Assembly: GCA_963726745.1 (NCBI GenBank)
Contig: CAVSDR010000005.1
Location: forward strand, 128,001-192,000
Direction of reading: 5' to 3'
Length of the DNA stretch: 64,000 bases
From: an uncultured Verrucomicrobiae bacterium
GTDB taxonomy: Bacteria > Verrucomicrobiota > Verrucomicrobiia > Chthoniobacterales > UBA10450
Shown: one piece after another, positions 1 through 14,149 of the stretch
How the letters are laid out: each line of letters begins with the position of its first letter
Position numbering within the stretch: the first letter of the stretch is position 1
Translations under genes and position numbers: made by a program
Notes under the pieces: generated by a model
What the model saw: only the letters and a program-made list of their open reading frames with translations
Told to the model about the DNA's origin: nothing
The model's database searches: none

Positions 1-1021
1 ACCTCGGGCGGGCCGGCGTTGATCTTCTTCGATCGGAATCAGAACCTGCTGTCCGCTCCCGAAGTGCGTCTTCAGCCGCGAATGGCGGCGGCCAACGGCT
101 CGAACAGCACTTGGACCGGCAGCGACTCCGCGAATGACATCGACACCGGGAACGGCCAGTTCTACGGCACCAGCGCGGCAGCGCCGCACGCGGCCGCAGT
201 CGCCGCGCTCGTCCTCCAGGCCAAGGGCGGCCCGGGTTCGGTCACGCCGTTGCAGATGCGCACGATGTTGCAAAACACCGCCTTCCCGCATGATCTCGAT
301 CCCTACCGCGCGAGCGGTGTGGCCCGCGCGACGAATGGCGGCAAAGTCACCGTGACCGTCCGGAGCGACACCACCGCGGTGCAGAATCGCGGCCGCAACG
401 ATCCCGATTCCTTCTCCATCAGCTACGTGGGGCCGAGTGCGATCACGTCGTTTAAATTCAATCCGAGCGGCCTTGCGTCCGAAGGCGGCGGCGTGACCAG
501 CGGGCAGAACGGCGTCGACGCGAGCAATAACTATTTCTCGACCGTGACCCCGGGGCTGTATTTCACCACCGCCACGGCCGGGGGAGCGTTTGCTTTCACG
601 CCGGGCGCCAGCACCGGTCTTCTCGCGTCGGATGCCACGGCGGCCCTGAGCAATCCAGCGCCGGCACCGGCCACGGTCACGGCCAGCCAGGGATTCACCC
701 TCACGCTGTACTTTCGTCGCGGATAGCTTCACCGGCGGCGATGTCTTTCGCTTCACCATCGGCCGCGCCCTGGCGCGCGGACCGAACGTAGCCGCCACCG
801 GCGGCGCGGTCCTGGCGCATTACAGCGCGGACCTCTTCGGCGGCGGCGTGCTCATCCCAGAGGGGACGATCATCTCTGATGGCATGCGCTTTAGCGGCAC
901 GCTGGCGGATGGCTCCACCTTCGACGGTGTGATCCGCAATCGCATCGGGGCCGGCTTCTCGCAGCTCGATGGCTTCGGCTTTGTGAATGCGGAAGCCGCG
1001 GTCTACGCGCCTGTGCCCTAA
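1..1021 (+). CDS. S8 subtilisin-like serine peptidase, C-terminal part (5' truncated by window; apparent +1 frameshift near 709)
   Basis: FYGTSAAAPHAAAVAALVLQ catalytic-Ser motif in ORF 19..726; removing one base near 709 continues the frame to ...DGFGFVNAEAAVYAPVP with TAA at 1019-1021. Confidence 0.8.
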
Positions 1022-1366: not shown

Positions 1367-4300
1367 ATGATTAAAACAAAAACCCTTCTGCCCTTGGCTG
1401 CCCTCGCAACAGCCGCCCTGGGTTCATTGTCCTTCGCCCTGGCGCAGGCACCTTCCGCTGCCCAGCCTGCCGCCGCCGCTCCCGTGGCAAGCACGGAGGC
1501 CTCCTCCGAAGGGGAGAACTTGCGGGCTTATTTCGTCGAGATGACGGCGCCCGCCGCCGCCGCCACTTTCTCTTCAAACTACCAACGCTATGCCGCGGAA
1601 TCGCGTCTCCTGCGCGGCAACGCCGCCGCCCGTGCGCAAGCCGCGACCGAGCGGGCTGCCTCCGAGGCGACCCAGCAGGCTTGGACGAACGAAAACGCGC
1701 AGCGGGCCTTGCTGAATAATCTTAGCGCTCCGGGTCTCGGTGTGAAGGTCCTCTATCGCGCGCAGACCGCTCTCAATGGCATCGCGGTGATGGCTCGCCC
1801 TGATCAGGTCGCGGCCCTCGAGAAACTTCCCGGCGTGCAGCGGGTCATCGAAGTGGTCCCGATGAAAATGGATGCGGTCAGCAGCCTCAACTTTGTGGGC
1901 ACGCGCAACTTCTGGAACACTTCAGGAATCAACGCCCACGGCGAAGGCGTCGGCGTAGGGGTGATCGATACCGGCATCGACTTCGTCCACACCGGCAACG
2001 CCGGCCCCGGCGGCAGCGGCTATGCGACCGGCGTCACCTCGGTTGGCGGCGGCACCCCCGCGACGACTTTCCCGACTTCGAAAGTGGTCTGGGGTTACGA
2101 CCTCGTGGGCGATGCCTACTCCGGCACAAACTCTCCCGTGCCCGACCCGAACCCGATGGACACGAACGGTCACGGCACCGCTTGCGCGAGCTTGATCGCC
2201 GGTTTCGGCGTGAACAGCGACGGCACCACCTACACCGGTTCCTACACTTCGGTCGTTCCCGATATTTCGACCCTTCGGATTTCGCCCGGCTTCGCCCCGC
2301 AGGCTTCCCTCTTCGCCTTCCGCGTCTTCGGCACCAGCGGCTCGACCAACGTCAGCTCGCAGGCGATCGACATCGCGACCGCGCTCCGTCTCTGGCAGCT
2401 CTCGCCTGATGGCACGGCGCTCCCGCCAGCCATCAGCAACCTGAGCCCCGCGGCGGTGGCACCTCCGCGCACCCCTGTGCTTTCGGTGATCAACATGTCC
2501 CTCGGCTCCGGCAACGGCCAGGCCTCGGCTTACAACGACGGCACCGTGGCGGTGCAGAATGCCGCCGCCGCCGGTCTCTCGATGATCATCTCGGCGGGTA
2601 ATTCCTATGACAACATCTACGTGGTCGGCAGCCCGAGTGTCGCCACCGGCTCCATTTCCGTAGCCGCGACCTTTAACGACAAGCAGCCTGGCGCCACGGC
2701 CAACGCGCCGGCCAATGGCAGCCAGCCGCCGCTGAACGTCGCCATGCAGATCGGCGCCGCCGCCGCCGCCATCACCAGCGCCCCGAACGACCTGCCCCCG
2801 ACCGCGGCGCGCTACGCCAATCCTCCTCTGGGCGACTTCCAGCACACTGCCGGCACCAGCCTCGCGGCCACGCTGACCGCTGCGCTCAAAAATGACGCAG
2901 GTGAACCTGTGACCGACGCGAGCGGCAATCCGATTGCCGGCGTTTCGAATCCTTATCCGGGCAAGGTCGTCCTGATCGATCGTGGCGTGGTCGGTTTCCA
3001 TCAGAAAGCTCTCGCCGCTGCCCGTGCGGGCGCTGCCGCGGTGGTCATCGTGAACAACCGTCCCGGTTCTGCCCCCGGCATGGCCGCAGCCGCCGGTTTC
3101 CCCGTGCTCTCGATTCCAGTCGTGAGCGTAACCGACGTGGATGGCGCTCTGATGAGCAATACCGGCGTGGCTAACGTCCCGCCCGCGCGTCCAGGCTTGA
3201 CTATCGGCCTGCAGCCGGAAAACCCGGCCAATGCCGATGAAGTTACCGGCTATTCCTCCCGCGGTCCGCGGCGGCTGGACAACCGGCTGAAGCCCGACAT
3301 GGCGGCGCCGGCCGAAAACGTGACCGTGAATGTCGCCACCACCGGTAACGGCGTGGGCAGCTTCAACGGCACCTCCTCCGCCGCTCCCCACGTCTCCGGC
3401 GCGATGACGTTGCTCCGGCAGTTGACCAATTCCGGCGGCACCACGCCGGCTTGGACGATGGAAGAGCTCAAGGCGTTGATTATGAACTCGGCCACGGGCA
3501 ATCCGCTCCTCGGTGGCGCCAATGGCACCATCCGCTACGGCCTCTCCCGCGTGGGCGTGGGTCGGTTGAACCTGGCCCCGGCCGGCGGCATGCCGACCGC
3601 AGTGGCGATGAGCACCGATGCCGACTTCCCGGTGAGCATTTCTTTCGGCTCCGTGGAAGTGCCGGTCGCGGAGACGGTCACGATCGACAAGACCTTCAAG
3701 GTGGTCGACAAGGGCCCGGTCCCGCTGTCGCAGAAAGGGGTCGCCTCCATGCGCACCTTTAACCTCTCATTCGACACCGTGAACGCGGTCCCCGGAGTCT
3801 CGTTCTCCTTCCCGGACGGCCCGACCATCGACGTCCCGGCTGGTGGCTCCGCCACCGCCCGCGTCCGCATTACCGCGGTCGGCAGCCTGCTGCGCCATGT
3901 GCGTGAAGCCGCGACTACGGCCACGCAGGTGTTTGCCCTCGGCCCTCCGGCCACGCTTCTGCCGCGCACCTTCCTCACGGAAGCAGGCGGCAACATCATC
4001 CTCACGGAATCGGGTGGAGCGGGGAATCAAATGCGCCTCTCGGTGCATGCCTTGCCGCGGCCGAACTCGAGCTTGAGCGTCACGCCGGCCTCGTTGGTGC
4101 TGCCGGCGACTTCCGCCTCGCAAGTCCTGACCTTTGCGGGCAACGGAATCGATACCGGCAACAACCTCGACACCGTGGCCAACTCGACCGCAGACATCAA
4201 ATCGCACGCCAAGGCGTTCGAGTTGCAATACGACAAGCCATCGGTGCAAAGCGATCCGCTCTTCAAGACGGCCGAGATCACGAAGGTGGGTGTGACCAGC

Positions 4301-5476
4301 GACTTTGCGCGCCGCACCCTTCCGTTCGATACCGCGACCACAAACAACCAGAGTGCGGTGGTGGTCTTCGCGGTCGCGACCGCGGCGGACTACAACACCC
4401 CGAGCAGCTCGGGGCCGGACATTCAGATCTTGGTCGACCGGAATGGGGACTTCGTGGAAGACATCACCGTGCGCAGCTTTGCCTGGAACGATCCCAGCCA
4501 GGGCACGGGCACGTTTGGCTCGAACATGTTCCTCAGCGTCACCAACCCCTTCGGGTCGGGCACGCTCACGACGACCGGATTCTTTACCAACATCCTCGTC
4601 GGCCGCGCGATGAACACGTTGAACAACAACACCATGATGTTGCCGGTTAATGCCCAGCGCCTCGGCCTCACGGCCGCGGCGTCGCGCATCAATTATAAGG
4701 TGAAAAGTTCGTTCTACTTTGGCACCTACAACTCGGAAACCCCGTGGATGACCTACGACCTGGCGAAGCCGGGCGTGGACGCCTCCGTGGCGGTGGCAAA
4801 CGAGCCCTTCGTCTTGAATGCCATCGGCGGCAGCAGCACTTCGGCCACGATCAACACCCCGCAATACAACGGGAACCGGTCGCTCGGCGTGATGATGCTC
4901 TATCCGTGGAATGCGCCGGCTAATCGCGTGCAAACCGTCCGCGCTCCGGCGCAGTTGCTCGAGGTGGTCTCGCGCCGTCCGGGTGCAGGCACGCCGGAAC
5001 GCGTCTTTTCACTCGCGAACCCTGTGGGCGTGGAGAGCCGTCGAGGGGCGAACTTCAACACCAGCGTGAACCCGAACACCGGCGACTACACGGTAGCTTT
5101 CCGGTTCAACAGCCCGGTTACGCAGGGCACATGCACCATCCAATCGGGTGTGGCCACCGTGGGAGCGATCACGTTTAACGGGAACGACATGATCGTGCCG
5201 CTTACCGGGGTGAACGACAAGCAACTCATCACCTTCAGCCTCACTGGCCTGGTCGACAACCAGGGCAATCCGCTGCCTAACTTGCAGCCGCAACTTGGGT
5301 TCCTTGTGGGCGACATCAATGGCGACGGCACGGTCGACGTCGGCGATTCCATTCTCGTCCGGAATGACGCCGGGAAAACCGCCGCGCAAGCGCCGGCTAG
5401 CGACGTAAACGGTGACGGCACCGTGAACTCTGGCGACGCCATCATCGTGCGCGGTGCCTCGGGGAACGCGTTCTAA
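1367..5476 (+). CDS. Secreted S8 subtilase with I9-like prodomain, PA domain, C-terminal Ig-like module and dockerin
   Basis: Signal peptide; triad motifs VGVIDTGID, HGTACAS, NGTSSAAPHVSG; PA motif GKVVLIDRG...GAAAVVIVNN; duplicated Ca-loops GDINGDGTVDVGD and SDVNGDGTVNSGD. Confidence 0.92.
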   Translation: MIKTKTLLPLAALATAALGSLSFALAQAPSAAQPAAAAPVASTEASSEGENLRAYFVEMTAPAAAATFSSNYQRYAAESRLLRGNAAARAQAATERAASEATQQAWTNENAQRALLNNLSAPGLGVKVLYRAQTALNGIAVMARPDQVAALEKLPGVQRVIEVVPMKMDAVSSLNFVGTRNFWNTSGINAHGEGVGVGVIDTGIDFVHTGNAGPGGSGYATGVTSVGGGTPATTFPTSKVVWGYDLVGDAYSGTNSPVPDPNPMDTNGHGTACASLIAGFGVNSDGTTYTGSYTSVVPDISTLRISPGFAPQASLFAFRVFGTSGSTNVSSQAIDIATALRLWQLSPDGTALPPAISNLSPAAVAPPRTPVLSVINMSLGSGNGQASAYNDGTVAVQNAAAAGLSMIISAGNSYDNIYVVGSPSVATGSISVAATFNDKQPGATANAPANGSQPPLNVAMQIGAAAAAITSAPNDLPPTAARYANPPLGDFQHTAGTSLAATLTAALKNDAGEPVTDASGNPIAGVSNPYPGKVVLIDRGVVGFHQKALAAARAGAAAVVIVNNRPGSAPGMAAAAGFPVLSIPVVSVTDVDGALMSNTGVANVPPARPGLTIGLQPENPANADEVTGYSSRGPRRLDNRLKPDMAAPAENVTVNVATTGNGVGSFNGTSSAAPHVSGAMTLLRQLTNSGGTTPAWTMEELKALIMNSATGNPLLGGANGTIRYGLSRVGVGRLNLAPAGGMPTAVAMSTDADFPVSISFGSVEVPVAETVTIDKTFKVVDKGPVPLSQKGVASMRTFNLSFDTVNAVPGVSFSFPDGPTIDVPAGGSATARVRITAVGSLLRHVREAATTATQVFALGPPATLLPRTFLTEAGGNIILTESGGAGNQMRLSVHALPRPNSSLSVTPASLVLPATSASQVLTFAGNGIDTGNNLDTVANSTADIKSHAKAFELQYDKPSVQSDPLFKTAEITKVGVTSDFARRTLPFDTATTNNQSAVVVFAVATAADYNTPSSSGPDIQILVDRNGDFVEDITVRSFAWNDPSQGTGTFGSNMFLSVTNPFGSGTLTTTGFFTNILVGRAMNTLNNNTMMLPVNAQRLGLTAAASRINYKVKSSFYFGTYNSETPWMTYDLAKPGVDASVAVANEPFVLNAIGGSSTSATINTPQYNGNRSLGVMMLYPWNAPANRVQTVRAPAQLLEVVSRRPGAGTPERVFSLANPVGVESRRGANFNTSVNPNTGDYTVAFRFNSPVTQGTCTIQSGVATVGAITFNGNDMIVPLTGVNDKQLITFSLTGLVDNQGNPLPNLQPQLGFLVGDINGDGTVDVGDSILVRNDAGKTAAQAPASDVNGDGTVNSGDAIIVRGASGNAF

Positions 5477-5497
5477 GCGGCGCCCAAAACGCAGTCT

Positions 5498-5538
5498 AAC
5501 GAGCGGCTCCAGCAGCGTTGCTGGAGCCGTTTTCGTTT
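5498..5538 (+). terminator. Stem-loop / probable terminator after subtilase gene
   Basis: gcggctccagca / tgctggagccgt inverted repeat followed by tttcgttt. Confidence 0.7.
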
Positions 5539-5686
5539 CTGAGGGGGGGGCGCTGGGGGTGCAAAGACGTCGATGACGAAAATATAATGACGGTTTCGCT
5601 GGGTCTTTATCGGGAAGACCAGTAACTAGTGCTCCGGCTGGCGCGTCACGCCACCATAAAAGCCCAACCTAGCAATACCTACGTCT

Positions 5687-8600
5687 ATGATTCCACGCTT
5701 CCGTCCTCTTCTCTCGCTGCGCCTCGTTGCGGCGGGGATTGTTTTCACTCTATCCGCAGGACTGGCTTCGGCCGTTCCGTGGGCACCAGGCGAACGCGAA
5801 GGGGATGAATTCCACGAAACCCCGGCGGAGAAGTTTGTCGAAAACCTCCCGGCAAGTGACGCGCTCCTCCCCGCGCCGCAGCCCAAGAGCGTGCCGGCTA
5901 TTTCTCGAGCGGTTCGCAAGACCAACCTCGTTAATTTGGACTGGACGGCGATCGGGCCGTTCCCGATTCCGAATGGCCAGACGATTGGACGCCAGGATCC
6001 GGTAAGCGGACGTGCGACTGCCATCGCGATCCATCCCACGAATGAAAACATCATGTATTTGGGCACGGCCCAAGGCGGTCTTTATCGGACGCTCGACGGC
6101 GGCGCGACCTGGACGCAATTGATGGACGCCGCCACCGCCGGCCCTGTGGGCACGCCTCTGGCCATCGGCGCGGTCACGATCGATCCCACCGACCCGACCA
6201 CGGTTATCGTCGGCACCGGCGAAGGAAACCTTTCCGCCGACAGTTATTTTGGCAGCGGCCTTTACACCGTCACCGGAGCGGATGGCTCCAACCCCGTGGT
6301 GAACGGCCCCTTCAACGCGTCCGCCGGTGAAACGGGCGTGGCCGCTGGCACCGATCTCTTTACGGGCCGCTCGATCGTGGCCATCGCGGTGGATCCGACG
6401 AACCACAACAACGTCTTCATCTCCACTTCTTCGGGTGTCGGCGGTATCCGGGGCACGGCCTATAGCGTCCTGCCTCGCCGCGGTCTCTATCGCTCCACGA
6501 ATCTCTTTTCTGCCTCACCTACCTGGACTCGTTTACAAATCACGGGCACGACGAGCACCAACACCATCTCCACCTCGCTGGTGATGGATCCGGCGAACGC
6601 GAATAACCTCGTGGTGGCCTATTACAGCCAGGCCGGGACCGACCCGACGGGTATTTACCGCACGACGAACGCGCTCGACCCTGTGCCCACCTTCACGCAG
6701 TCGCTCGCGCTGCCGAACTTCATCAACTGCAAGCTCGCCATCCAGCGCGCGACAGACGGCACCGTGACGGTCTACGCCACGGCCGACCAAAGCTCGGGCA
6801 CGCTCTACAAGTCGGTCAATGGCGGCGCGACCTTTGTGAACAAGCCGGGCGCCAATGGTTTCGCCGGCGGTCAGGGCTTCTACGATCTCTCCGTGGGCGT
6901 GGACCCAAACAACGCCAACAACGTGAGCGTGGGCGGCCAGGCGGGCCAAAACACCTTCAAGCGTTCCCAAGACGGAGCGAACACTTTCACTGTAGACACA
7001 GCTGGCACCTCCATCACTGTCGGGTTGCACGCGGACGTTCACGCGATCCGCTACGCTCCTTCGAACGGAAACGTGATCTATCACGCGAATGACGGTGGTG
7101 TTTGGCGCTCCGGGGACGGCGGCAGCAACTGGGTTTCGAAGAACACCGCTGGCCTCAGCGCGACGCAGTTTTCCGATCTCGCGATTCACCCGACGGACGC
7201 GAAATTTTCCATCGGCGGCACGCAAGACAACGGCACCGAGCAGCTCCGCGCAGACGGCACTTTCACCCGCGTCGACTTTGGCGACGGCGGCTTCTCCCTG
7301 ATCGACCAGAACGCCACCGACACGACCAACGTGGTGCAGTATCACACCTACTATAACCAGACGGCGAATCTGATCGGCACTGGTCGCATTCTCACCAACG
7401 CTTGCGCTTCTGAAGGCCAATGGAGCTTCCATGGCATTTACGGCGGCGCGGTTGACCCCACGCCGTATTGCGACGGCAGCACCGATACTTTTAACGGTAT
7501 CGCCCTCACGGACGCGACCAACTTTTACGCGCCGCAGGTCCTCGGGCCGGGCAATCCGAACACCTGGTATTTCGGCACCGATAAGCTCTACCGCTCGATC
7601 AATCGTGCGGATACGGCCACGGTCGCGAGCCAATTGCTCGACCAGACCACAGCAGGCACACCGCCGACGGGCACCCCGGTGAGCGCGATCGCGATCTCGC
7701 CGCAAGACGATAACGTTCGCCTGGTCGGCTTGAACAACGGCAAGATTTTCGCGACCACCATCGGCAGCCCGACGATGCTGCAGATCGCCGGCACCGGTGC
7801 GACCAATGGACCCACGAACACGCCAGCGGTGGCGGTGGGGCGCATCGCGATCGATCCGAACAACAAGAATGTCGCCTATTTCGCCTTCGGCGGCTACGGC
7901 ACCCCGGCCGCTCCGCTCTCGCATGTCTACAAAGTGACTAACCTCGACGCGTTGAGCGCCACCCCTCCCGGCGTGCTCGTCTTCACGGCCGTCTCTTCAG
8001 GCCTCCCGGATGTCCCGGCAAACGCCCTCGCGATTGATCCCCAGAGCGGGTCGAATAGCGCCAGTTCGAGCGACATTTATGTCGGCACCGACCTCGGCGT
8101 TTACAAAACCACCAACGGTGGCACCGGTTGGACCCGCTACGGCACCAGCATGCCGCGCGTGGCAGTCTTCGGATTGCAGATCCAGAATCCGAATCGCCTC
8201 ATCCGCGCAGCGACCCATGGTCGCGGCATGTATGACGCCTCCATCATCGCGTCGTCCCTGCAGGCGCCCGTGCTCTCCAGCGTGGTTTCGCGAAAGACCC
8301 ACGGCTCTGCCGGCACCTTCGACATCAACATGCCGCTTACCGGTCCTGCCGGCATCGAGCCGCGCAAGGGCGCGCAGGGCTTGAACACGCCGGGAGACTT
8401 CACCATCGTCTGCCGCTTCACCAATGCCATCTCCAGCCTGCAAGCTCAGGTGACCACGGGCACCGGCACGGTGAACAGCATCGTCTACCAAGGGAACGAT
8501 GTGATCGTAAACCTGACCGGCGTCACCGACGTCCAGGTCCTCACCTTAACCCTGAGCAATGTCACCGATTCCAACGGCAACACCTTGCTCTCTGCCTCGG

Positions 8601-8797
8601 TCAAGCTTGGGTTCAATATGGGAGATACCACCGGCAATGGAGTCGTCGACGTCGGCGACGCCGCGCAAACGAGAAATAATTCTGGTATTGCGACAACCAT
8701 CTCGAACTTCCGCACCGATGTGAATGTCGACGGCACGATCAACGGCGGCGACGTATTGATCGTCCGGCAGAAATCAGGCAACAGCATTATGCCTTGA
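5687..8797 (+). CDS. Secreted BNR/Asp-box beta-propeller protein (VPS10/GH74-like fold) with C-terminal Ig-like module and dockerin
   Basis: Signal peptide; WTAIGP...SGRATAIAIHP start; Asp-boxes RTLDGGATW, KSVNGGATF, RSGDGGSNW, KTTNGGTGW; VSRKTHGSAGTFDI module; GDTTGNGVVDVGD and TDVNVDGTINGGD. Confidence 0.85.
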   Translation: MIPRFRPLLSLRLVAAGIVFTLSAGLASAVPWAPGEREGDEFHETPAEKFVENLPASDALLPAPQPKSVPAISRAVRKTNLVNLDWTAIGPFPIPNGQTIGRQDPVSGRATAIAIHPTNENIMYLGTAQGGLYRTLDGGATWTQLMDAATAGPVGTPLAIGAVTIDPTDPTTVIVGTGEGNLSADSYFGSGLYTVTGADGSNPVVNGPFNASAGETGVAAGTDLFTGRSIVAIAVDPTNHNNVFISTSSGVGGIRGTAYSVLPRRGLYRSTNLFSASPTWTRLQITGTTSTNTISTSLVMDPANANNLVVAYYSQAGTDPTGIYRTTNALDPVPTFTQSLALPNFINCKLAIQRATDGTVTVYATADQSSGTLYKSVNGGATFVNKPGANGFAGGQGFYDLSVGVDPNNANNVSVGGQAGQNTFKRSQDGANTFTVDTAGTSITVGLHADVHAIRYAPSNGNVIYHANDGGVWRSGDGGSNWVSKNTAGLSATQFSDLAIHPTDAKFSIGGTQDNGTEQLRADGTFTRVDFGDGGFSLIDQNATDTTNVVQYHTYYNQTANLIGTGRILTNACASEGQWSFHGIYGGAVDPTPYCDGSTDTFNGIALTDATNFYAPQVLGPGNPNTWYFGTDKLYRSINRADTATVASQLLDQTTAGTPPTGTPVSAIAISPQDDNVRLVGLNNGKIFATTIGSPTMLQIAGTGATNGPTNTPAVAVGRIAIDPNNKNVAYFAFGGYGTPAAPLSHVYKVTNLDALSATPPGVLVFTAVSSGLPDVPANALAIDPQSGSNSASSSDIYVGTDLGVYKTTNGGTGWTRYGTSMPRVAVFGLQIQNPNRLIRAATHGRGMYDASIIASSLQAPVLSSVVSRKTHGSAGTFDINMPLTGPAGIEPRKGAQGLNTPGDFTIVCRFTNAISSLQAQVTTGTGTVNSIVYQGNDVIVNLTGVTDVQVLTLTLSNVTDSNGNTLLSASVKLGFNMGDTTGNGVVDVGDAAQTRNNSGIATTISNFRTDVNVDGTINGGDVLIVRQKSGNSIMP

Positions 8798-8816
8798 TTT
8801 CGCCCAAATAAAGTCG

Positions 8817-8865
8817 AACCGGGTCGAGCCCGAAAAATATTATAAAATCGGGCTCGACATCGGTT
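8817..8865. repeat. Inverted repeat with AT-only loop
   Basis: gtcgagcccga (8823-8833) / tcgggctcgac (8848-8858), perfect 11-bp stem around aaaatattataaaa. Confidence 0.85.
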
Positions 8866-8913
8866 TAGCGAAATCCTAGAAAACTCGAAATCACTGCAAC
8901 CCCGCACGCACCC

Positions 8914-9591
8914 ATGAAAAAAACTCTCCTTCTTTCCGCTCTCGCTTTCGCGAGCGTCTGTCTCACTGCCGTATCCAGCTTCGCGCAAACCGCGTCGTTC
9001 GTTTATACCGGAGTACCCAGCGGGCCTTTGGCTCCGGGATCGTCCTTCACCATCGGCATCAGTGTGGTCTTCGCCGCCGGCGGCACCGTGACGGACGTCA
9101 ACGGCCTATCTTATTGGTTCGCCCAAACTAACCCAACGAGCAGCTATCCCTTCTCGATCACAAATCGCAATGTTGGCGCGAGTGCGTTCAATCAGCTCCA
9201 GACCCCTGGGTTGACTTATCCGCAGATCATCGATCCGATCAATCGCAACTCGAATGGCACAACCAACCAAACGGATTTGGGCGCTCTCTCGCAGGACCCT
9301 CAGGGCACTCCTGGCAATCGTAATGGCACCTTCTTCGTCGGGAATTTGACCTTCCAAATCTCCGGCACCGCCGCTGCGACAACTTACACCCTTGGGAACA
9401 CCAGCACCGGGACTCCTCCTGGGGTGGGTGGCCGCGTTTCCGTTGTGACCGACAGCAACGGCAACACTGCGCCGATCGCGTTCTCGCCTTTCAACGTCAC
9501 GGTCGTGCCAGAGCCGAGCACCTACGCGCTGCTCGCGTTTGCCGGCCTCGGCCTGGTTGTGGTGGCCTATCGCCGCCGCGCGAACGCCTAA
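8914..9591 (+). CDS. PEP-CTERM sorting-domain protein with a possible cohesin-like domain
   Basis: Signal peptide; C-terminus VPEPSTYALLAFAGLGLVVVAYRRR (PEP, TM helix, basic tail); body has a beta-sandwich-like pattern. Confidence 0.9.
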   Translation: MKKTLLLSALAFASVCLTAVSSFAQTASFVYTGVPSGPLAPGSSFTIGISVVFAAGGTVTDVNGLSYWFAQTNPTSSYPFSITNRNVGASAFNQLQTPGLTYPQIIDPINRNSNGTTNQTDLGALSQDPQGTPGNRNGTFFVGNLTFQISGTAAATTYTLGNTSTGTPPGVGGRVSVVTDSNGNTAPIAFSPFNVTVVPEPSTYALLAFAGLGLVVVAYRRRANA

Positions 9592-9612: not shown

Positions 9613-9646
9613 ACAGCCCCGGTAGTTCGTCTGCCGGGGCTGTCTT
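9613..9646 (+). terminator. Stem-loop / probable terminator
   Basis: acagccccggtag / ctgccggggctgt. Confidence 0.7.
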
Positions 9647-12632: not shown

Positions 12633-14149
12633 ATGAACGAAGAATCACAGAATCAGTCCGAGGGCGCGAACCAAGTCCGCGCCGGCCCGTCGCCGCCGGC
12701 CTTCCCGCCGCGGCGCGCGTCCCCGCCGTGTCGCTGGCAATGCCGAGCGTCCTTCCGAAAACGTCGATGAACGCCGCGCCGCCGAGATGACCGCCGACCG
12801 CACCCGCGAGCAGCGCGAGCAGCGCGAGGGCGGGAGCCACGATTCTTCCGAGCCCGCGAATCGCGAAGGCGAAGGGCAAAGCTCCGCGCCTCCGCAGGGC
12901 GACCGCGAATTCCGCGAGCGCGACCGTGGCGGCGAGCGAAGCGATCACGAGGACCGTGATCGTCCGCGGGACCGAGAGCGCGATCGCTCCGAGCAACCGC
13001 ACGGCGGTGGCCAGGGGAACAACAACGGCCAGGACCTGCAGCGCGAGCCGGAGTTTGGCGAAGGCATCATCGAGATTTCCGGGAAAGGCTTTGGCTTCCT
13101 GCGCGACCCCAAGCGCAACTTCGTCCAGACGCCGCAGGACATTTTCGTCACACCGGAGATAGTGCGCCGTTTTAACCTGCGCGACGGCATGTGGGTCCAG
13201 GGTGAGACGCGCCGCGGCAATCGCGGGCCGCAGCTCATGCGCCTGAACAAGATCAACGACGACGAGCCGACGAAGTATCAGGAACTTCGCCCGTTCGAGG
13301 AGCTGACCACGATCAATCCGAACAAGCGGATCAAGCTCGAGACCGTGCCCGACCGCTTCACTACGCGCATCATGGACTTGATGACGCCGCTCGGCATGGG
13401 CCAGCGCGGGATCATTGTCGCCCCGCCGCGCACCGGCAAGACCACCCTCCTGCATCACATCGCCGATGCCGTGACCAAAAACCATCCGGAGATGAAATTG
13501 ATCATCTTGCTGGTTGATGAACGTCCCGAGGAAGTGACCGATTTCCGCCGCTCGTGCCCAGGCGCCGAGATCATGGCCAGCTCGAACGACAGCGACATCA
13601 AAAGCCACACGCGCATCGCCCAGCTCGCGATCGAGCGCGCCAAGCGCATGGTCGAGGCCGGCAAACACGTCTTCATTCTGCTCGATTCCATCACCCGCAC
13701 CGCGCGCGCGTTTAACAACGCCACCGGCGGCGGCGGTCGCACCATGAGCGGCGGCATCGACGCCCGCGCGATGGAAATCCCGCGAAAGATTTTCGCCGCC
13801 GCCCGCAATACCGAAGAAGCGGGTTCACTCACGATTGTCGCGACTGCGCTTGATCGAAACCGGCAGCCGCATGGACGAGCTCATTTTCCAAGAGTTCAAA
13901 GGCACCGGGAACATGGAGCTGGTGCTCGATCGCAAGATCAGCGATCAGCGCATTTACCCGGCAGTCGATATTTTCCTCTCCGGCACCCGTCGCGAAGAGC
14001 TGCTCCTGGAAGCCTGGGAGCTGGAGAAGATCAACCTGATTCGCCGCGGCCTCGCCGGTCACAAACCGGAGGAAGCAATCCAGCGCCTGCTCATGTTCGT
14101 GAAGAAATTCCCCACGAATACGCAGATGCTGAAAGAGATCCCGGGTTAA
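12633..14149 (+). CDS. rho: Transcription termination factor Rho (apparent frameshifts near 12670 and 13852)
   Basis: GFGFLR, PLGMGQRGIIVAPPRTGKT, LLVDERPEEVTD, LLDSITR in ORF 12787; ETGSRMDELIFQEFKGTGNMEL continues in ORF 13835..14149; likely ATG at 12633 is in a different frame. Confidence 0.93.

Follow-up and report, generated by a model that had tools for sequence, protein, structure and literature searches.

It is established that monoderm cellulolytic bacteria anchor secreted proteins through cohesin–dockerin pairs. OlpA and OlpC of Clostridium (Acetivibrio) thermocellum (PDB 3ul4, 4dh2), anchored by surface-layer homology (SLH) domains, combine one cohesin with an envelope anchor for single dockerin-tagged proteins, and ScaE of Ruminococcus flavefaciens (PDB 2zf9) takes X-dockerin-type tails. 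Dockerins outside cellulosomes mostly have, to our knowledge, no known partner. The type III cohesin of ScaE, from a cellulolytic host, bears a C-terminal protease-processed sorting signal, through which a sortase links it covalently to the cell wall (PMC11557425, in its accessible part); the same part describes an SLH-anchoring class of cohesins and classes those with a C-terminal transmembrane helix, with examples from Bacillota, as non-SLH anchors. Cohesins are also used outside cellulose degradation, e.g., in glycoside hydrolases of Clostridium perfringens (2vo8, 2w1n), where the cohesin is a module inside the enzyme, and in Archaeoglobus fulgidus (2xdh). Non-cellulolytic cohesin–dockerin complexes have been proposed for freshwater Planctomycetes (the “planctosome” of Nemodlikiaceae, PMC6461901), Ca. 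Stygibacter (PMC8542988) and anaerobic methanotrophic (ANME) archaea (PMC9012536, PMC5244752), with other anchors or none named in the accessible parts of these papers. The window analysed here (64,000 nucleotides of contig CAVSDR010000005.1 from an uncultured bacterium of the Chthoniobacterales, Verrucomicrobiota; positions below refer to it) carries genes for a subtilase, a propeller protein and a 225-aa protein with a PEP-CTERM sorting signal. With a probability of roughly 0.74, the 225-aa protein, which is single-copy and has a predicted cohesin fold, is an exosortase-sorted envelope anchor for the X-dockerin tails (an Ig-like X domain of ~110 aa followed by a dockerin) of about 30 secreted proteins, the neighbouring subtilase and propeller protein included.

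The three co-oriented open reading frames (ORFs) lie on the forward strand and encode 1369, 1036 and 225 aa, the last at 8914-9591 (other coordinates are collected in Table 1). The subtilase matches Peptidase_S8 (E 3e-34) and PA in Pfam, with a sub-threshold I9, and has the motifs D201, H269 and S670; the propeller protein shows four Asp-box motifs and a sub-threshold Sortilin-Vps10 match, and its designation as an enzyme is unproven, since no catalytic family passes the Pfam cut-off. Both end in Dockerin_1 matches (aa 1315-1361 and aa 979-1028, respectively). The 225-aa protein starts with a basic–hydrophobic–AxA pattern (judged by eye alone, as were the signal peptides of the other two) and ends with a PEP motif, a transmembrane helix and a basic tail, with PEP-CTERM scores of 24.5 in Pfam (cut-off 20.7) and 19.9 in TIGR02595 (cut-off 16). 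An earlier note on this DNA, made from the letters alone, had described two consecutive dockerin-ending proteins, the positions of their dockerins, the co-oriented PEP-CTERM gene behind them and three cohesin-like strand motifs; each of these was recovered, the motifs in the translation of 8914-9591.

What the note overlooked is the conserved domain of ~110 aa preceding the dockerin in the 30 ORFs which, genome-wide, end in the same dockerin. The AlphaFold2 model of the X-dockerin of the propeller protein (pLDDT 96.8) predicts an Ig-like X domain, its best VIA match being the Ig-like domain of 3bc9 (Z 8.2, rmsd 2.2 over 89 residues). Foldseek returned no match for this model at E 0.001, the VIA matches were generic Ig-like domains, and cellulosomal X-dockerin chains matched weakly (E about 0.02-0.05). 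The dockerin is of type I (PF00404), and its calcium-ligand positions 1, 3, 5, 9 and 12 (as given in the accessible part of PMC6780208) carry D, N or S at 98% in the 29 copies from this genome. Recognition residues are nearly invariant in the 22 copies compared: G11 is found in 22/22 and 21/22, and R17 in 22/22 in both repeats. As to the cargo, two of the 30 ORFs have a Pfam peptidase domain, namely the S8 of the window and a reprolysin (M12B). Propellers or MAM-like domains occur in several, and none matches a Pfam glycoside hydrolase family, in line with the non-cellulolytic system that had been postulated. The description of this cargo as proteases and hydrolases is too wide, as most of it is not recognisable as an enzyme. 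Several of the dockerin ORFs are fragments, probably because of frameshifts in the assembly, and hide part of the cargo. Elsewhere in this genome, a 25-kb cluster (G000 C3:744541-769004) holds seven X-dockerin ORFs on both strands without a cohesin gene.

The 225-aa protein has a single copy in its genome (94.7% complete) and a wide family (an initial search gave 143 homologues, and 479 representatives were matched at E 1e-10), whose named members belong to Chthoniobacterales or Verrucomicrobiota; beyond the order, four of 301 phylum genomes were matched, all four being in the same order. In the AlphaFold2 model built from a 120-row alignment (pLDDT 90.5), the central domain is predicted to adopt the cohesin beta-sandwich fold. 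The top Foldseek match is the cohesin 2vo8 (E 2.5e-6), and in VIA-align cohesin entries occupy ranks 1-16 (best Z 11.5, with an rmsd of 3.0-3.1 over 135-138 residues), the best non-cohesin fold reaching Z 8.8. Hence, the structure prediction proposed in the note as a check gave cohesins best by each route. The non-cellulosomal 2vo8, 2w1n and 2xdh are the best matches (Z 11.5, 11.5 and 9.4), the OlpA and OlpC complexes are among the top ones (Z 10.3 and 10.6, at 8-10% identity), and ScaE scores Z 8.0. Matches in the ESM Atlas were all below 0.9 and serve as leads only, with cohesin-bearing clusters at 0.78-0.81; a profile search of PDB sequences with the family gave nothing useful. A complex prediction of the cohesin (aa 24-198) with an X-dockerin and four calcium ions scored 0.30 and 0.27, the mark being 0.32; with the controls not folded, it is counted neither way. 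Since a shared fold shows no function, independent genomic tests were sought.

Some members of the family depart from this architecture. In P0250 and at L054:9944-11113 the cohesin is fused to an X-dockerin, and in P0138 to a different dockerin type, making the three candidate adaptor or chain-forming scaffoldins. In P0139, P0140, L045 and L204 the PEP-CTERM is swapped for another short C-terminal domain, a hint at a second sorting route. Up to eight cohesin matches per genome occur in the family sample, and paralogues form clusters of three to five (G491 C2:7439-10146; G532 C1:47766-67160; G500 C11; G513 C2), which are possibly sockets of different specificity. A metagenome scan with the distant match P0230 gave three loci, none of them with a cohesin domain or a dockerin.

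Compared with the described systems, the overall mode is best read as a single-cohesin anchor of the kind seen in OlpA, OlpC and ScaE, and not as a multi-enzyme cellulosome. One predicted cohesin-fold domain and a sorting element were found on the 225-aa protein; an SLH or sortase signal was not, PEP-CTERM being its sole Pfam score, with no room left for SLH repeats. Whereas OlpA and OlpC belong to a cellulosome and to a monoderm wall, the anchor proposed here would work in a diderm, and its C-terminal signal, processed by a sortase in ScaE, would be served by an exosortase. The cohesins 2vo8, 2w1n and 2xdh share the use outside cellulose degradation but come from other lineages and envelopes, and in C. 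perfringens the cohesin is not, as predicted here, a stand-alone sorted anchor. The planctosome and the Stygibacter complex are, likewise, hypothetical diderm assemblies with peptidase cargo, but their anchor is either a lamin-tail protein of 2,210 aa or a scaffoldin of 3,755 aa with multiple cohesins and a different C-terminal domain, and neither PEP-CTERM nor the X-dockerin family figures in the descriptions compared (PMC6461901, PMC8542988, each in its accessible part); the anchor here has 225 aa with PEP-CTERM, and not the large lamin tail. The PEP-CTERM/exosortase system itself (TIGR02595, PF09721) is represented by a bona fide signal, four exosortases above cut-off and 22 PEP-CTERM ORFs (own profile). 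The substrates known for it are themselves the cargo and are linked to the formation of exopolysaccharide and flocs (PMC12188702, accessible part), whereas here one substrate would be an adaptor displaying about 30 untagged proteins.

No multi-cohesin scaffoldin was found, with one homologue in the 94.7% complete genome, although more divergent cohesins would escape the search; this and the lack of Pfam glycoside hydrolase cargo argue that the system is not a cellulosome. Thus, of the cellulosome-like display put forward in the earlier note, the display on a one-socket anchor is supported and the cellulosome is not. The census it had called for yielded 30 dockerin ORFs, a single cohesin-fold PEP-CTERM protein and the four exosortases. 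Thirty dockerin-ending ORFs and one predicted PEP-CTERM socket suggest that the latter likely pins varied non-cellulolytic secreted proteins to the envelope.

Co-occurrence among relatives points the same way. In a sample of 151 genomes of the order, the full-length cohesin profile matched 22, of which 18 survive a domain-only check; the other four (G016, G091, G121, G131) had been matched by the PEP-CTERM tail alone and were dropped before counting, as were, on the same grounds, the loci L052 and L055-L057. X-dockerins were found in 22 of the 151, i.e., in all 18 cohesin genomes and in G084, G101, G110 and G127; none of the 129 genomes without X-dockerin has the cohesin. G101 has a frameshifted cohesin homologue directly behind an X-dockerin gene. 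In G110, a PEP-CTERM protein with a shorter cohesin-looking domain (L065:8093-8821, reverse strand) is encoded directly behind three X-dockerin genes; it is cohesin-like by eye, hhalign gives it a probability of 3.8%, it has no match to the own profile, and its status as a cohesin is unproven. In a family sample, also of 151 genomes, the cohesin occurs in 58 and X-dockerins in 103, all 58 being among the 103 (these include the X-dockerin-positive, cohesin-negative G563 and G577, without which the numbers are 58 and 101 of 149; nothing else in the analysis draws on these two). The co-occurrence with dockerin proteins on which the note had staked its reading was therefore seen in 18/18 and 58/58 cohesin-positive genomes.

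Gene order adds to this. Of the 25 homologue loci in the order, counting the own one, 22 have a co-oriented, dockerin-ending gene immediately upstream, the remaining three comprising one cohesin–X-dockerin fusion and two loci with neither. The gap between the two genes is 5-61 nt in 10 of the 22 pairs, and in six genomes the sole X-dockerin match found adjoins the cohesin gene. From one locus to another, the cargo proteins encoded upstream are unrelated (S8, phosphodiesterase, BNR, fn3, PKD). As a control, only one of the 22 PEP-CTERM ORFs of the own genome immediately follows an X-dockerin gene, namely the cohesin-fold one. Since kin are not independent, these counts do not amount to a statistical test.

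The dockerin sequences carry a further signal. Among 133 X-dockerins aligned from 22 genomes, the 121 from 13 genomes with at least three copies were analysed (all 29 full copies of the own genome and a sample of top-scoring copies elsewhere). The nearest neighbour is in the same genome for 97/121 dockerins versus 31/121 X domains (24-34 when the X domain is trimmed to the dockerin column number). For the dockerin, column identity falls from 0.68 within genomes to 0.46 between them; for X, it falls from 0.45 to 0.41. The most genome-specific positions in both repeats are 9, 11, 13 and 17. The named recognition positions are 10, 11, 17, 18 and 22, and similar repeats indicate dual binding (PMC6780208, accessible part). 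Here, position 11 is the same in the two repeats of a protein in 0.79 of cases, compared to 0.18 across genomes; for position 17 the values are 0.95 and 0.41. Within genomes, identity at four-fold degenerate sites is 0.32-0.59, with amino-acid identity of up to 0.83, which argues for selection over recent gene conversion. After removal of the TypA distance, the distances of the cohesin and of the neighbouring dockerin correlate at r 0.44 (20 pairs), and in ten family genomes at r 0.39 (p 0.0125), compared to r 0.19 (p 0.20) for X; the control, consisting of one marker gene and Mantel tests, is rough. The “rec” rows, in which two of the seven positions (9 and 13) had been chosen post hoc from the genome-specificity ranking, were not used as evidence.

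Genomes in which no cohesin was found serve as a natural control, for which eight of the 45 such X-dockerin genomes were sampled for their many copies (6-10 dockerins each) and scored at positions 10, 11, 17 and 18 only. In G084, G469, G501, G515 and G569, where no cohesin was found, identity is 0.20-0.27 and repeat symmetry 0.10-0.23; in 12 of the 13 genomes counted as having a cohesin (among the 13, on weaker evidence, G101 and G110) identity is 0.52-1.00. The dockerin thus appears, from sequence comparison, to be under a genome-specific, symmetric constraint going with cohesin presence; the socket seems to constrain the plug.

A probable course of events starts with the export of both partners by Sec. 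An exosortase would then cleave the PEP-CTERM signal, and the cohesin would stay fixed on the outer membrane or on exopolysaccharide, where it would bind the calcium-loaded dockerin, probably in a calcium-dependent manner. Each anchor would take one cargo from a common pool; two orientations of a dual binding mode are probable from the symmetry of the repeats, and the lock and key would differ between genomes. The binding is rated somewhat higher than the surface location. A broader version, according to which the PEP-CTERM cohesin of Chthoniobacterales is a universal, genome-specific surface socket recapturing dozens to ~100 X-dockerin proteins, with a lock co-evolving with its keys so that own proteins are retained and those of relatives are not, is tentative and falls slightly short of an even chance. 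If true, it would constitute a diderm, non-cellulolytic counterpart of the sortase-anchored scaffoldins, keeping secreted enzymes private.

Several observations weigh against the proposed anchor. Pfam Cohesin (PF00963) matches neither the window protein nor anything else in the genome and touches only five of the 120 homologues (best E 0.044); solved cohesins share 8-22% identity with the model, in which ~35-40 residues are unaligned insertions which could cover the binding face. The 45 of 103 X-dockerin family genomes without a match to the cohesin profile count against the anchor as well, as does the weaker adjacency at the new family loci (8/20). The genome specificity of positions 11 and 17 is equalled by that of 9 and 13, which are not named as recognition positions. 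Across the order, a correlation with the cohesin is seen for the X domain too after the TypA correction (r 0.29-0.35), so cassette co-inheritance accounts for part of it. In the control, the cohesin-positive G046 is heterogeneous (0.17; three sequences, two cohesins), and three of the eight cohesin-negative genomes are not relaxed, viz. G547 (0.92), in which a partial PEP-CTERM ORF of cohesin-like appearance immediately follows an X-dockerin gene, G508 (0.72), which is in 610 contigs, and G559 (0.39, symmetry 0.67), in 270. Four of the five heterogeneous genomes belong to genus g8 (the fifth being G569), so the control amounts to about two independent lineages. These five keep their calcium ligands (0.88-0.93); hence, the X-dockerin can persist without this socket, and it may have a second role.

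Among the alternatives, the one that survives best, though unlikely, has the cohesin binding the dockerins off the outer surface, as a socket set free by exosortase cleavage into the periplasm or into the exopolysaccharide matrix, or as an export escort. It draws on the accessible part of PMC12188702, where PEP-CTERM proteins are attached or released, with an unclear outer-membrane route and some of them periplasmic, and on the homologues described above whose PEP-CTERM is replaced by a dockerin or by another domain. On the other hand, PEP-CTERM is kept in 117 of 120 homologues, exosortase-type enzymes appear to leave their substrates membrane-anchored at the surface (PMC11980579, accessible part), and the own genome has three secretin genes, compatible with an export route and not proof of one.

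Still less probable is that the X-dockerin is mainly a cohesin-independent module (a secretion tag, a calcium-stabilised cap or a means of self-association) and the cohesin-fold protein an adhesin- or lectin-like companion in the cassette. This would fit the 45 of 103 X-dockerin family genomes without a match to the cohesin profile, and genus g8 above all, in which all five X-dockerin genomes lack such a match (four are also Pfam Cohesin-negative) and 6-16 X-dockerin copies retain intact calcium ligands. Moreover, non-cohesin beta-sandwiches, e.g., the CLIPPER adhesin domain 9ifr, reach Z 8.4-8.8, and at the new family loci an upstream X-dockerin within 1.5 kb was found at just 8/20 (14/27 of all loci delivered). 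Against it stand the cohesin that never occurs without X-dockerin in either sample, the uniform and symmetric recognition positions that go with cohesin presence, the single PEP-CTERM gene out of 22 that adjoins an X-dockerin gene, and the cohesins that fill VIA ranks 1-16. That genome-specific dockerins merely reflect recent duplication or conversion of gene 3′ ends, and not partner selection, is very improbable: four-fold identity is indeed higher in the dockerin than in X (0.59 vs 0.49 in the own genome, 0.50 vs 0.43 pooled within genomes), but G093, G042, G101 and G029 combine amino-acid identity of 0.77-0.82 with four-fold identity of 0.32-0.44, and conversion alone would neither couple both repeats nor cease in genomes without cohesin.

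If the single-cohesin, exosortase-sorted anchor is the right reading, a Pfam-invisible cohesin would explain a large dockerin-tagged secretome (30 ORFs here; X-dockerins in 103/151 family genomes), and a PEP-CTERM protein would be given a concrete molecular job, that of an adaptor, which few have. The divergent cohesin–dockerin pairs, with predicted orthogonal specificities, form a natural panel useful for designer-cellulosome work. A full-text search, outside of which most subscription papers and supplements lie, found no paper joining cohesin, with or without dockerin, to PEP-CTERM, or dockerin to Udaeobacter; sorted cohesins could be listed in supplements, e.g., in those of PMC11557425 and in the domain tables for ANME archaea. 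Broader queries gave no such system in the title or the start of the abstract among the matches listed, and one listed paper mentions dockerin and Chthoniobacterales, once each. As Atlas clusters carrying both Pfam labels show, the architecture, even if undescribed, is present in databases; new here is the genome-specific, symmetric constraint on the plug that seems to go with the presence of the socket.

Table 1. Features of the locus in window coordinates (columns: feature, position, strand, basis).
Secreted subtilase (I9-like, S8 with PA insert), X-dockerin C-terminus	1367..5476	+	ORF, Pfam, D201/H269/S670 motifs
Ig-like X domain of subtilase (predicted)	4961..5308	+	Conserved domain; fold predicted on paralogue
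Type I-like dockerin of subtilase, two Ca-binding repeats	5309..5473	+	Pfam 32.7 bits, cut-off 22.9
Terminator-like hairpin 3′ of subtilase gene	5501..5532	+	Intergenic fold z -4.0
Secreted Asp-box (BNR/Vps10-like) propeller protein, X-dockerin C-terminus; catalysis unproven	5687..8797	+	ORF, Pfam, motifs
Ig-like X domain of propeller protein (predicted)	8276..8620	+	AlphaFold2 model, VIA match to 3bc9
Type I-like dockerin of propeller protein	8621..8794	+	Pfam 25.5 bits, cut-off 22.9
Strong hairpin between propeller and cohesin genes	8816..8866	+	z -4.5, 0/200 shuffles
Signal-peptide-like N-terminus, aa 1-24 of 225-aa protein	8914..8985	+	By eye; helix 3-16 in model
Predicted cohesin-fold domain, aa 25-197	8986..9504	+	AlphaFold2 model, Foldseek, VIA
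PEP-CTERM sorting signal, aa 198-225	9505..9588	+	Pfam, TIGR02595
13-bp hairpin 3′ of cohesin gene	9613..9643	+	Intergenic fold z -4.4

Upstream of the subtilase gene lies a second large S8-type protease gene without a dockerin (window 1-1021; G000 C5 about 125970-129020), with a frame change near 720 and its end at 1021, likely due to an assembly indel. A Rho-like gene, recognised by eye at 12787-14149, has a frame change near 13835; together with the many fragmentary ORFs, it suggests indel errors in the assembly. A promoter scan gave 3 matches vs 1.6 +/- 1.4 expected by chance, i.e., near chance level. The hairpin 5′ of the cohesin gene has a perfect 11-bp inner stem and an AT-only 14-nt loop. 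As a conserved feature of the gene pair it is ruled out, because the dockerin–cohesin gap in many relatives is too short for a hairpin of this type; in this genome, it could affect the transcript level.

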